A stretch of 64,000 nucleotides of DNA, taken from assembly GCF_054482525.1 (NCBI RefSeq), contig NZ_CM137006.1, one strand, 5' to 3'. The notes beneath the pieces were generated by a model. It searched no databases, was not told the origin of the DNA, and saw only the letters and a list, made by a program, of their open reading frames with translations. The position numbers were made by a program, and so were the translations under genes. The stretch's first letter is position 1. Each line of letters begins with the position of its first letter. Positions 6,523 through 64,000 of the stretch are shown here, in pieces.

Positions 6523-6721
6523 TCCTGACTTAATGCCGCAATTTCGCCAAATCGACCTGGATTAACCTCCGTCCAGGTTCGATGACCTTCTTAATACTGC
6601 TTATCTACCCGCCTGATATTGTTCAAAAATAATACTAATCGCAGTTTGTGTTAAAACGGCGGGTTAGCTTTATGAGATTATTCTTATCGCCCCTTCAAGA
6701 GCTAAGCCACTGAGAGTGCCG

Positions 6722-6790
6722 GAGATAAGCGCCGGATGGGGTAGAAACCCTTAAGCCTGTGTCGCACAGACTTAAGGGTTTTCTTATTTC
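6722..6790 (+). ncRNA. rydB: Probable RydB small RNA; boundaries approximate
   Basis: K-12 places rydB between ydiH and sufA on the ydiH strand; long stem-loop 6746-6780 (AACCCTTAAG...CTTAAGGGTT) followed by TTTTCTTATTTC; the 5' end is not determinable by eye. Confidence 0.4.
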
Positions 6791-24452: not shown

Positions 24453-24758
24453 TCAGGCGAGTTTTGCCTCATTGATTTGACTCAGTGGCTCATTGACATC
24501 GAAAACTTTGGCGACAACTTCCTCAACGCCGAGATTTTTCAGTCGGGCAGTATGTTTTTCCAGATAGGCAAGGGCGCTTTTTTCATCAGTGAAAAGGTAG
24601 ATCCCACCGGCTTCGTGGTTCTTTTCACTTTCTGTCCATACCTTCCACAGAAAACCAGGTTCCTGATTAATCGACTCAGCAAGTGGTTTAAGCTGCTCAG
24701 CCATTGCGTCGCCAAATGGGCCATTAAAAGCAAAATGAAGTTGTAACAAAGTTGCCAT
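24453..24758 (-). CDS. ydhR: Putative monooxygenase-like protein YdhR, 101 aa
   Basis: 101-aa ORF beside the tRNA-Val pair as in K-12. Confidence 0.85.
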
Positions 24759-24866
24759 AGCGATTCTCCTTCTGATAACGCATACGAAGACAGTGTAAAT
24801 CTTTTAACGTATTGGATACAGAGAAGAAACAGAGGGAAAAAAGGAGAAGACCAGATTAAGAAAATC

Positions 24867-24943
24867 TGGTGCGTCCGAGTGGACTCGAACCACCGACCCC
24901 CACCATGTCAAGGTGGTGCTCTAACCAACTGAGCTACGGACGC
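24867..24943 (-). tRNA. valW: tRNA-Val (anticodon GAC), 77 nt
   Basis: Reverse complement reads GCGTCCGTAGCTCAGTTGGTTAGAGCACCACCTTGACATGGTGGGGGTCGGTGGTTCGAGTCCACTCGGACGCACCA; copy adjacent to ydhR, so by K-12 order probably valW. Confidence 0.9.
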
Positions 24944-24947
24944 AGGA

Positions 24948-25024
24948 TGGTGCGTTCAATTGGACTCGAACCAACGACCCCCACCATGTCAAGGTGGTGC
25001 TCTAACCAACTGAGCTATGAACGC
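24948..25024 (-). tRNA. valV: tRNA-Val (anticodon GAC), 77 nt, second tandem copy
   Basis: Reverse complement reads GCGTTCATAGCTCAGTTGGTTAGAGCACCACCTTGACATGGTGGGGGTCGTTGGTTCGAGTCCAATTGAACGCACCA; 4-nt spacer from the first copy; differences are compensatory in the acceptor and T stems. Confidence 0.9.
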
Positions 25025-33616: not shown

Positions 33617-33660
33617 TCCATTTCACTCCAGACCCTAACTTCAGCTCCTGCAAAATCGCA

Positions 33661-33676
33661 AGGTAAACGTTTGCCT
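33661..33676. promoter_or_regulatory. PUR-box-like palindrome AGGTAAACGTTTGCCT upstream of purR (autoregulatory operator candidate)
   Basis: Core AAACGTTT palindrome matching the PurR operator consensus, 45 bp upstream of the purR ATG. Confidence 0.55.
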
Positions 33677-33914
33677 TTACACACCTTACGCACAACAAAA
33701 GTGTTGCGGTACGCCGGAAAAACGACACGGAGCGTCAGGAAGGGGTCAATGGCCAGTACGCAAATAGTGTAAGCGTGGAATTTTGGCCGATCTTGACGAA
33801 AAGGGGAAGTGGTAAAAACACTTATCATTATAAATGACGGGAGATTTTTTCATCACAGTGTGTAAAAATGCGTAATATCACTTTTTGTGTGGTAATAAAA
33901 AAGGAGAAAACTTG

Positions 33915-34004
33915 ATGAGCACCGACCTTAAATTTTCACTGGTAACAACGATTATCGTCCTCGGTTTGATCGTGGCCGTGGGTTTGACTGCCGCGCTGCA
34001 CTGA
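33915..34004 (+). CDS. ynhF: Small membrane protein YnhF, 29 aa
   Basis: ATG 33915 preceded by AAGGAGAAAA; translation MSTDLKFSLVTTIIVLGLIVAVGLTAALH, a single TM helix. Confidence 0.7.
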   Translation: MSTDLKFSLVTTIIVLGLIVAVGLTAALH

Positions 34005-34169
34005 TTTCCTCTCGAGGGAGCGCGTTCTCCCTCGCATCTCCTTCCTGTTTGTTAGCAAAATGGCAAAAGTGTTTTCTCTTTTTGTTATTTTCATTTTTTT
34101 GTGATTGCTGTCATGCTTTCGCCACTTAAATGAATATCGCGTAATGACGCGAAGAGGTGGAGATAAGGC

Positions 34170-35484: not shown

Positions 35485-36066
35485 TTATGCAGCGAGATTT
35501 TTTGCTACGAATTCCCAGTTCACCAGCGCCCAGAAGTGCTCCAGATAGCCAGGACGTGCATTGCGATAGTCGATGTAATAAGCGTGTTCCCAGACATCAA
35601 CGGTCAGCAGCGGAGTTGCATCGGTGGTCAGCGGAGTACCCGCGTTAGAGGTTGAAACGATAGCCAGTTTGCCATCGCTGTTTTTCACCAGCCAGGTCCA
35701 GCCAGAACCAAAGTTTTTGATTGCTGCATCAGTAAACTGTGCTTTGAAATCGGCAAAGCTGCCAAAAGATGCGGCGATAGCTTCAGCGACTTTTCCAGTC
35801 GGTTCGCCACCCGCGTTCGGTGCCAGGCAGTTCCAGTAGAAAGTATGGTTCCAGACCTGAGCTGCGTTGTTGAATACGCCACCTTCAGAGCTGCGAATAA
35901 TCTCTTCCAGTGATTTACCTTCAAACGCGGTACCTTTAATCAGGTTGTTCAGGTTAGTGACATAAGTCTGATGATGCTTGCCGTAGTGATACTCGATGGT
36001 TTCCGCAGAAATGTGCGGTGCCAGAGCATCTTTAGCATATGGTAGTGCAGGTAATTCGAATGACAT
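35485..36066 (-). CDS. sodB: Iron superoxide dismutase SodB, 193 aa
   Basis: [36 protein letters not shown]... recognised as Fe-SOD. Confidence 0.97.
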
Positions 36067-36193: not shown

Positions 36194-37021
36194 TTAGCGA
36201 AGTGTTTTTGGGGTCATTACCCGGCGAGCGCCAACATAGTGGCGCTGCCAGTAGTCTTCACTGAGAGAAGTGATTTGAATTTCCTGACCCGTGCGCGGTG
36301 ACTGAATAAATTTGCCGTTGCCGACATACACGCCGACATGATCGGCTGTACCGCGTCCCTGAGTACGGAAAAAGACCAGGTCGCCGTTTTTCAGTTCACT
36401 ACGTTCGATTGGCGCTGCATCGCGCAGGTGATACATTTCATTCGCCGTACGCGGAATACGAATTTTCACCAAATCTTTATAAGCGTAATAAACCAGGCCG
36501 CTGCAATCAAAACCGGTACGCGGTGAGCTGCCGCCCCAACGATATGGCTTACCAATTTGCTGCATCAGTTTATTCATTGCCACTTTCGTAGCTTTTTGCA
36601 CCTTCGCTTTGTGCGCGTCGGCAAGAGTTCCTGAAGCGGCATTTTTGACTTTCACACAATGCGATTTATAGCCCTTACGTTTGGTACACTTTTCGGTAAA
36701 GTTGGCTGAGGCCGTTTTATTGACGGCGTGTTTGCTGCGAGTTTTGGCGTTTTTAGAAGCGGTAATGGAAGATTTTTTAACGGAAGAAGCGGTTTTGCTT
36801 TTGGTCGTACTTTTACTGGCGGCTTTTTTCGCTGTTTTCTGGCTGGCTTTCTGGGTCTTTTTGGTGGTTGCCGTGCTTTTCTTTTTATCTGCTTTTTTGG
36901 TGATATGAGTGATAGCAGAACTCTCCCTGGCTTGCTTTGAAGCATGGGCCATAGGCGTTAAAGGCAGGGTGGTAAAAAGTAAAGCACAGAGCGTGATCGA
37001 AATACGGTTTATCCGCGCCAC
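36194..37021 (-). CDS. mepH: NlpC/P60 murein DD-endopeptidase MepH (YdhO) with signal peptide and K/T/S-rich linker, 275 aa
   Basis: C-terminal NlpC/P60 motif (DCSGLVYYAY ... HVGVYVGNG); start may lie a few codons inside the ORF call. Confidence 0.85.
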   Translation of the reverse strand: MARINRISITLCALLFTTLPLTPMAHASKQARESSAITHITKKADKKKSTATTKKTQKASQKTAKKAASKSTTKSKTASSVKKSSITASKNAKTRSKHAVNKTASANFTEKCTKRKGYKSHCVKVKNAASGTLADAHKAKVQKATKVAMNKLMQQIGKPYRWGGSSPRTGFDCSGLVYYAYKDLVKIRIPRTANEMYHLRDAAPIERSELKNGDLVFFRTQGRGTADHVGVYVGNGKFIQSPRTGQEIQITSLSEDYWQRHYVGARRVMTPKTLR

Positions 37022-37355
37022 TGAGCGTCCCTCTGTTAAGGCAGGTCTATCATGCCTGCGTCTGATTTACAAAACTTGATGATTCTAATGCATAGAAGAA
37101 GAGAAAGTTAATAGCTTTTATTGTTAAAAAATACGTTTCGTTGGCGAGCGCAAAAAAATGCAGCAGTGAAAGCTAAAAATGGTTATAAATACGCCAGTTT
37201 GCCGTGCGTCAGGGAAGAAACGAATATTTGAAATGCAACAAATAGAGCAAAGGGATAAAATAGCAAAAGCGTGATGAAAATGTTATTTTCCGATGCCGCA
37301 CTGACCCGCTACAATGTCAGATTACTGCCGTAAAGAAGTTTGAGGAAGCAAGACA

Positions 37356-37703
37356 ATGAGCACCACTATCGAAAAAATCCAACGCCAGATTGCTGAAAAC
37401 CCGATCCTGCTGTACATGAAAGGTTCACCGAAACTGCCGAGCTGCGGTTTCTCTGCCCAGGCAGTCCAGGCGCTTGCCGCATGTGGCGAACGTTTTGCCT
37501 ATGTTGATATTCTGCAGAATCCGGACATTCGTGCGGAACTGCCGAAATATGCTAACTGGCCGACCTTCCCGCAACTGTGGGTTGACGGCGAGCTGGTCGG
37601 CGGTTGTGATATCGTGATCGAAATGTATCAGCGTGGCGAACTGCAGCAGCTGATCAAAGAAACTGCCGCTAAATACAAGTCTGAAGAGCCGGACGCGGAA
37701 TAA
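37356..37703 (+). CDS. grxD: Monothiol glutaredoxin Grx4, 115 aa
   Basis: CGFS active-site motif (PSCGFSAQ); recognised as GrxD. Confidence 0.95.
   Translation: MSTTIEKIQRQIAENPILLYMKGSPKLPSCGFSAQAVQALAACGERFAYVDILQNPDIRAELPKYANWPTFPQLWVDGELVGGCDIVIEMYQRGELQQLIKETAAKYKSEEPDAE

Positions 37704-62314: not shown

Positions 62315-64000
<1,686 letters not shown>

Follow-up and report, generated by a model that had tools for sequence, protein, structure and literature searches.

The 64,000-nt stretch of Escherichia coli DNA analyzed here (contig NZ_CM137006.1 of assembly GCF_054482525.1; the whole stretch is called the window below) carries mepH (ydhO), the gene of the peptidoglycan DD-endopeptidase MepH, and, in its 5′ half, a segment of strongly biased composition that is overlapped by three further open reading frames (ORFs). 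The explanation that best accounts for all observations, to which we assign a probability of roughly 0.85, is that this segment encodes the N-terminal tail of mature MepH, a predicted disordered polycation that is selected for its composition, and that the overlapping ORFs are by-products of that composition. The feature is in itself an ordinary, already catalogued property of a known gene, the biased N-terminal region being visible in any database entry of the protein.

Composition and Predicted Disorder of the MepH Tail

A 57-residue peptide quoted from MepH in an earlier note, which was made from the sequence alone, matches aa 42-98 of the translation exactly. The note had called it highly basic and compositionally biased, and the ranking agrees: among 18,884 segments of 57 aa, representing all the window's stop-to-stop ORFs that reach 150 aa, it has both the lowest entropy (2.63 bits) and the highest net positive charge (+19), with Lys, Ser, Thr and Ala making up 86% of its residues. 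The complete tail (aa 28-111) has a net charge of +21 and about 8% hydrophobic residues. Tandem Repeats Finder (TRF, minimum score 30) detected no array in the region of the kind that a variable-number tandem repeat would show, and a repeat-finder search returned two short matches only, at chance level. The region is thus one of cryptic low complexity and not a repeat array.

The region is preceded by a signal peptide (62% pairwise identity among orthologs) in which the MepS-type lipobox, [LVI][ASTVI][GAS]C with a Cys at +1, is absent, as read from the sequence. It therefore appears to be of the signal peptidase I (Sec) type, and MepH would be a soluble periplasmic protein. In the literature, MepH is indeed classed as a soluble periplasmic enzyme, MepS as an outer-membrane lipoprotein, and MepM is placed in the inner membrane (PMC7516022). 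The earlier note had described a linker between the signal peptide and the NlpC/P60 domain. The position is right (aa 1-27 and aa 157-267 lie on either side), but since the signal peptide is presumably cleaved off just upstream, the region is more aptly seen as a free tail at the N-terminus of the mature protein than as a linker between two domains.

Several lines of evidence converge on disorder. In an AlphaFold2 model built on an alignment of 54 orthologs, the predicted local distance difference test (pLDDT) score stays below 50 for aa 24-105, and no secondary structure is found there. The mean hydropathy of the tail, 0.362 versus a boundary value of 0.503 at a net charge of 0.25 per residue, puts it on the disordered side of the charge-hydropathy plot. 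No Pfam match, PDB match, solved structure or retrieved paper covers aa 28-111. The tail thus shows the combination of characters by which disordered regions are recognized, namely low hydropathy with high charge, no secondary structure, low positional conservation and frequent indels.

In the model, a beta-hairpin (108-113, 121-126) follows the tail, then a helix (133-156) and the catalytic domain. The two Cys residues of the hairpin, C112 and C122, are invariant across 79 species, and this Cys-X9-Cys hairpin is probably a disulfide-stapled element. Membership of the catalytic domain in the NlpC/P60 family is clear from the Pfam NLPC_P60 match (aa 157-267, 125.8 bits versus a cut-off of 23, E=8.5e-37), and 39 NlpC/P60 chains in the PDB match MepH, over aa ~145-270 only. 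The catalytic Cys and His, C173 and H228, do not vary in either the 54 or the 79 orthologs, and Gln240 (36302-36304), which lies 12 residues past H228, is likewise invariant. The catalytic triad of MepS is C94-H145-H157 (PMC7516022). From the spacing, that of MepH appears to be Cys-His-Gln, with Q240 as third member, unlike the Cys-His-His arrangement.

Selection Acts on Bulk Properties

The tail and the catalytic domain evolve in very different ways. Across 54 orthologs, the mean pairwise identity of the tail is 0.31 with 24 length classes, versus 0.87 and an essentially fixed length for the catalytic domain. Composition is retained, with a K+R fraction of 0.23-0.31, a D+E fraction of 0.01-0.09 and a net charge between +14 and +29 in the same orthologs. 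We also scanned 80 Enterobacteriaceae loci, one genome per species, of which 79 have an intact mepH. In these 79 species the tail measures 65-102 aa and takes 21 different lengths, and the catalytic domain always measures 119 aa. Even in more distant relatives, with identities as low as 37-46%, the tail stays basic and poor in hydrophobic residues. Individual positions are conserved in two places only, a short N-terminal island directly past the putative cleavage site (AS.QAR, H39, K42, KKK46-48) and the residues leading up to the hairpin (TEKC). The ratio of nonsynonymous to synonymous substitution rates (dN/dS) is 0.21-0.28 for the tail and 0.02-0.03 for the catalytic domain, i.e., about 10 times higher in the tail, yet still well below 1; the tail is thus relaxed but not neutral, as expected if its bulk properties are under selection. 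Selection keeps these bulk properties (K+R 21-31%, D+E at most 10%, strongly positive charge) together with three small N-terminal islands (AS.QAR, H39 and KKK46-48), and sequence and length otherwise drift. A linker that is invariant and structured would have contradicted the earlier note, and both the ortholog alignment (identity 0.31) and the disorder prediction (pLDDT below 50) turned out the other way; its expectation that the length would vary is borne out by the 21 tail lengths over 79 species and, within E. coli, by the alleles described below. As a separate observation, mepH of Citrobacter amalonaticus AUH_CA_2023_1 is broken after 57 codons, within the tail, in a single-contig assembly of 4.9 Mb; either a genuine frameshift or a homopolymer error may underlie this.

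Many cell-wall hydrolases have N-terminal wall-binding modules, and one may ask whether the searches, misled by the biased composition, missed a folded domain that binds peptidoglycan, or a genuine tandem-repeat module. NCBIfam models for Listeria p60 and RipC do align weakly across the tail (the p60 model over aa 39-268), but both matches fall far under their cut-offs, and the low pLDDT without secondary structure and the lack of any Pfam or PDB match speak against a fold. The negative TRF result and an identity of 0.31 with 21-24 length classes count against this explanation too, and we consider it highly improbable. The likeness to Listeria p60 (Iap) and other Gram-positive NlpC/P60 hydrolases is nevertheless worth noting, as these also have a Thr-rich low-complexity segment of strain-variable length before the catalytic domain. 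In p60 this segment is a true Thr-Asn repeat between folded LysM/SH3 modules, whereas the MepH tail has neither a tandem repeat nor a flanking N-terminal domain.

The Overlapping Reading Frames Are By-Products

Three ORFs overlapping the tail had been reported in the earlier note as antisense and as probable artefacts. The coordinates of all three are correct, and so is the antisense orientation of 36681-36908 and 36728-36940; ORF 36652-36945, however, shares the minus strand with mepH and reads its +1 frame. That one or more of them is a real overlapping gene could be argued from the fact that the frames run for 97, 75 and 70 codons without a stop, that they are still open in E. albertii and some Citrobacter, and that gene callers give the +1 frame as the protein N-terminus in 101 database sequences (protein variant P0038). 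Yet these lengths are what the amino-acid and codon composition leads one to expect, as the probability of simulated lengths reaching the observed ones ranges from 0.12 to 1.0 over three null models. With synonymous resampling of MepH or a shuffled protein it is 0.12-0.59 for the three ORF frames; by ORF, the length simulations give 0.55 for 36681-36908 and 0.12-0.25 for 36728-36940. Permuting the tail's own codons always yields the identical 101-codon open stretch in the +1 frame. The reason is simple: a stop in this frame needs a T at codon position 2, hence a hydrophobic residue, of which the tail has almost none, and the antisense frames stay open because Lys, Thr and Ala codons rarely create antisense stops.

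Signals for expression are likewise lacking. We found no usable ribosome-binding site for the ORFs: the duplex with the anti-Shine-Dalgarno (anti-SD) sequence has −1.5 kcal/mol for 36652-36945 and +0.3 kcal/mol for 36681-36908, and the sole GAGG near 36728-36940 (−5.6 kcal/mol) lies ~16 nt upstream, too distant from the start. The reference values are −6.3 kcal/mol for mepH, −6.2 for grxD and −9.1 for sodB. No promoter-like site was found on the plus strand for the antisense ORFs.

Conservation argues in the same direction, as no more than 16 (36652-36945), 27 (36681-36908) and 26 (36728-36940) of the 80 species have the respective frame free of stops over the length of the tail. The ratio of nonsynonymous to synonymous polymorphism (pN/pS), pooled over three other Escherichia species, is 0.21 for mepH, 2.96 for 36652-36945 and 2.94 for 36728-36940. 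The value of 0.38 for 36681-36908 exceeds that of mepH and mirrors the selection on mepH, because the wobble positions of the two frames coincide. Finally, the 101 P0038 proteins are mis-started calls: gene callers pick up the +1 ORF only on alleles in which a run of six A has become A7, where restarting at the ATG at 36945 produces a chimera without signal peptide. The three ORFs are artefacts of the biased composition, only the mepH frame is under selection, and we see practically no room for an overlapping gene. The earlier note was thus right to distrust them: their lengths are those expected from composition, they have no usable ribosome-binding site and meet stops in most species, and their pN/pS is either about 3 or a reflection of mepH. 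The case is identical to that of other spurious ORFs over biased coding sequence, being stop-free from codon composition and having a low pN/pS in the mirror frame, and we found no difference.

We also considered whether the low synonymous divergence of the tail from E. albertii (dS 0.23, versus 0.77 in the catalytic part) could betray an overlapping constraint, and rejected it. The divergence of the tail is close to that of its surroundings (regional identities of 0.89-0.93 for the tail versus 0.93-0.96 for flanking genes and intergenic DNA), and the frame-specific pN/pS excludes the other frames.

Length Alleles Within E. coli

The tail also varies in length within the species. The mepH allele of the window encodes 275 aa, versus 271 aa in K-12, APEC O1 and strain 1283, which are without the 12-nt segment CCAGAAAGCCAG, encoding QKAS. 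Copies of the 7-nt direct repeat CCAGAAA, at 36848-36854 and 36836-36842, mark the limits of the deletion. Using a 200-nt query across the site, for which an ungapped match was counted as long and a match in the 90-95% identity band as short, we found the long allele in 1,878 of 5,424 complete E. coli genomes (34.6%) and the 12-nt-deletion allele in the other 3,546 (65.4%); every sampled row of the 90-95% band was a 188-nt match, except for strain ST2747, which gave a partial match only. The long form is found in E. albertii and Citrobacter, and the allele of the window is thus ancestral and the K-12 form a derived deletion. Examples suggest that phylogroup B2 contains both alleles, ST131 and Nissle having the long one and APEC O1 the short one.

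Rarer database alleles have tails of 48-71 aa. In the 261-aa allele P0010, which lies in a contig with intact neighboring genes, a natural in-frame deletion of 30 nt is flanked by 9-nt direct repeats, ACCGCTTCT, at 36785-36793 and 36755-36763. Another in-frame deletion, of 183 nt, shows a microhomology of 5 nt, again with intact neighbors in the contig, and the rare alleles P0040 and P0053 have lost most of the tail together with the Cys hairpin. Deletion between direct repeats of 5-9 nt is the source of the length changes in this A-rich DNA, and its A6 runs give rise to frameshifts. In the strain with the 210-aa MepH allele (GCA_012683985.1), rnt lies ~370 nt from grxD, and the 4.6-kb lhr, which occupies this place in the window, is missing.

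The six A5-A6 runs within the tail raise the question whether mepH is phase-variable, or whether the tail tolerates compensated double frameshifts thanks to a +1 frame that is open and likewise encodes a K/R/P-rich sequence. One A6-to-A7 allele is indeed recurrent in many Illumina assemblies with intact neighboring genes, and two database proteins (P0013, P0027) show a tail that runs in the +1 frame for most of its length and then returns to the mepH frame. But the A7 allele occurs in none of the 5,424 complete E. coli genomes, which leaves phase variation unsupported, and the A7 sequences, which trace to a few related run series, may represent one clone. Runs of 6 A are also short for efficient slippage. 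As to P0013 and P0027, which as real alleles would have indicated that any basic sequence can serve as the tail, we rejected them as natural compensated double frameshifts: lhr, grxD and ydhP are fragmented in the same assemblies, so that both alleles are most likely homopolymer sequencing errors. We therefore regard a role of these runs in phase variation or frameshift tolerance as very unlikely.

A number of points weigh against our interpretation of the region as a selected, disordered polycationic tail. The AlphaFold2 model is of modest quality overall (mean pLDDT 59.8), although the contrast along the chain is clear, and a low pLDDT is a proxy for disorder only. We found no statement on the MepH tail in the literature searched. 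Natural alleles missing between 10 and 61 residues of the region exist, and much of the tail length may thus be dispensable, or the deletion alleles may be defective. In two complete genomes, those of strains TUM2805 and ST2747, mepH is truncated by larger deletions that remove its 5′ part (extending to the start of grxD in TUM2805), and both are annotated as partial pseudogenes; these truncations fit the known redundancy of mepH with mepS and mepM (PMC11211486).

What the Tail Might Do

MepH is one of three jointly essential peptidoglycan DD-endopeptidases of E. coli that are needed for expansion of the wall, and it is redundant with MepS and MepM (PMC11211486); a mepS mepM double mutant depends on it (PMC8996183). 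Once the signal peptide is removed, the mature tail would be anchored to nothing. It might then act as a flexible polycation that holds the soluble enzyme on the polyanionic envelope, i.e., on peptidoglycan carboxylates and anionic lipids, and would in this way correspond to what MepS has in its lipid anchor and MepM in the combination of a membrane anchor and a LysM domain. As the three endopeptidases are positioned differently and MepH is soluble, its +21 tail would most plausibly be an electrostatic tether. We propose such a tethering to the sacculus or to anionic lipids tentatively, from the charge of the tail and the solubility of the enzyme, and rate it as somewhat less than an even chance.

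The tail may also be a recognition or initiation segment for proteolysis by the NlpI-Prc system. In its stronger form this idea makes the tail mainly a regulatory degron or adaptor-docking segment that binds the lipoprotein NlpI, or offers Prc an unfolded entry point, and so sets the half-life of MepH. It is compatible with tethering. MepH is degraded by Prc with NlpI, and mutants of nlpI and of prc have MepH levels raised by a factor of 3.5 to 5 (PMC8996183). In MepS, a disordered N-terminus of 36 residues is required for binding NlpI and folds upon binding (PMC11211486), and the sole position-specific conservation in the MepH tail, the N-terminal island AS.QAR..H..K...KKK, could be a linear motif. 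However, the contacts between MepS and NlpI rest on L24 and F31, hydrophobic residues (PMC11211486) of a kind that makes up only about 8% of the MepH tail, and Prc, the "tail-specific protease" (PMC11211486), recognizes C-termini, whereas this tail is N-terminal. By analogy with MepS, a mainly regulatory role is conceivable, but we think it rather unlikely.

MepS (Spr) is the closest known parallel in E. coli, being likewise an NlpC/P60 DD-endopeptidase with a disordered segment between signal sequence and catalytic domain and under NlpI-Prc control (PMC11211486, PMC8996183). Its segment, of about 36 residues, is lipid-anchored via Cys1 and binds NlpI through hydrophobic contacts, whereas the MepH tail, of about 84 residues, is unanchored, polycationic and nearly free of hydrophobic residues. 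Extracytoplasmic, disordered segments of biased composition are also described on other cell-wall enzymes and regulators, such as PBP1 and RsgI of Bacillus subtilis (PMC9732909) and ChiZ of Mycobacterium tuberculosis (PMC7355643). Probing of the peptidoglycan mesh or binding to acidic membranes has been proposed as the role of these disordered regions (PMC9732909, PMC7355643). They occur in other protein families and organisms, where membrane proteins tether them, and it is in its sequence properties that the MepH tail resembles them.

The mepH Locus and Its Surroundings

The positions of all features are collected in Table 1. The window comes from E. coli, and the 1,261 nt around the feature are 100% identical to strain PCN033. 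Of the 5,426 complete E. coli genomes in RefSeq, 5,425 have a match to this stretch, annotated as mepH plus grxD, and mepH of the window is ~98% identical to the K-12 gene annotated as such. The gene has a Shine-Dalgarno motif, GAGGG, with the anti-SD energy given above. The order of genes is sodB (35485-36066), mepH, grxD (37356-37703) and lhr. The position grxD - mepH - sodB, together with near-identity to the characterized K-12 protein, places the gene in the MepH orthologous group. The synteny with grxD and sodB was confirmed in six of seven genus-level orthologs examined; in the seventh, from Kosakonia, grxD lies upstream as elsewhere, and a gene for a major facilitator superfamily (MFS) transporter is found downstream instead of sodB. 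The top NCBIfam match of the protein is the MepS (Spr) equivalog PRK10838, at 85.9 bits versus a cut-off of 186. With a score this far under the cut-off, the gene is the paralogue MepH (YdhO) and not MepS, and an identity as the MepS lipoprotein was rejected on this score and on the absence of a lipobox.

Table 1. Coordinates of the features of the mepH region in the window.
Feature	Position	Strand	Basis
mepH (ydhO) coding sequence, 275 aa, GTG start	36194-37021	minus	ORF translation; RefSeq "peptidoglycan DD-endopeptidase MepH"; Shine-Dalgarno motif
Signal peptide, aa 1-27 (MARINR / hydrophobic core / AHA-SK cleavage)	36941-37021	minus	Read from sequence; putative cleavage site
N-terminal tail of mature MepH, polycationic and predicted to be disordered, aa 28-111 (84 aa)	36689-36940	minus	AlphaFold, charge-hydropathy, ortholog variability
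Low-complexity core, aa 42-98 (57 residues)	36728-36898	minus	Exact match to translation
Cys112-X9-Cys122 beta-hairpin after the tail	36656-36688	minus	Modeled strands 108-113 and 121-126; putative disulfide
NlpC/P60 catalytic domain, aa 157-267	36221-36553	minus	Pfam PF00877, peptidase family C40
97-aa ORF in the +1 frame of mepH, ATG at 36945; non-coding by-product	36652-36945	minus	Same strand as mepH
75-aa antisense ORF, TTG start; non-coding by-product	36681-36908	plus	
70-aa antisense ORF, GTG start; non-coding by-product	36728-36940	plus	
12-nt segment CCAGAAAGCCAG (QKAS), kept here, deleted in K-12-type alleles	36843-36854	minus	DNA alignment, junction analysis, allele counts
9-nt direct repeats ACCGCTTCT flanking the natural 30-nt in-frame deletion	36755-36793	minus	261-aa allele P0010
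A6 run (Lys82-Lys83), A7 in the frameshifted lineage P0038 (101 sequences)	36773-36778	minus	Sequence comparison
Sigma-70-like promoter match upstream of mepH	37082-37111	minus	Consensus match only
Terminator-like hairpin and T-run directly past the mepH stop codon	36161-36190	minus	Sequence prediction

Some further observations concern the locus and the window as a whole. The intergenic region between mepH and grxD (37022-37355, 334 nt) contains a hypothetical protein of 50 aa on the plus strand (WP_001299740.1) that is annotated in some RefSeq genomes only. In the DNA flanking mepH, outside the coding sequence, strains differ in length by 1 nt (matches of 1,248 versus 1,249 nt), and in one E. 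coli genome the mepH-grxD stretch occurs a second time, in the record of a plasmid.

Divergence along mepH is uneven across Escherichia. The catalytic part (36194-36553) has ~87.5-87.8% nucleotide identity to E. albertii and E. whittamii, with third-position identities of 0.64-0.66, and in the same comparison grxD, sodB and intergenic DNA reach 93-96% and the signal-peptide part of mepH 97.5-98.8%. Of the three Escherichia comparisons, two show this excess divergence of the catalytic part, and the third shows the reverse. The pattern may be a recombination mosaic.

Elsewhere in the window, Rfam matches at gathering score were found at 977-1084 (RprA), 6689-6749 (rydB), 24742-25024 (two tRNAs overlapped by a match to the antisense RNA HPnc0260) and 33617-34007 (STnc550). 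The coding stretch with the second lowest entropy lies at 62417-62587 on the minus strand, where a repeated unit ending in (Q)ANAE occurs in a long ORF (62318-64000) that runs off the end of the window; this we presume to resemble the repeat region of RsxC.

Implications

As mepH is already characterized, the value of these results as a discovery is small. They clearly dismiss three overlapping ORFs that looked tempting, with a correction of strand for one of them, and a quantified length polymorphism (34.6% versus 65.4% of complete E. coli genomes) together with its mutational mechanism. Should the tail turn out to serve in targeting or degradation, nature's own deletion alleles would be at hand as reagents. 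A more ambitious reading, in which the tail gives MepH its specific behavior through envelope holding or NlpI-Prc recognition, and in which the 4-residue deletion and the larger deletions are functional alleles tuning activity or turnover, seems to us doubtful. If true, it would make mepH of E. coli a natural allelic series for the control of a cell-wall hydrolase by a periplasmic disordered region.

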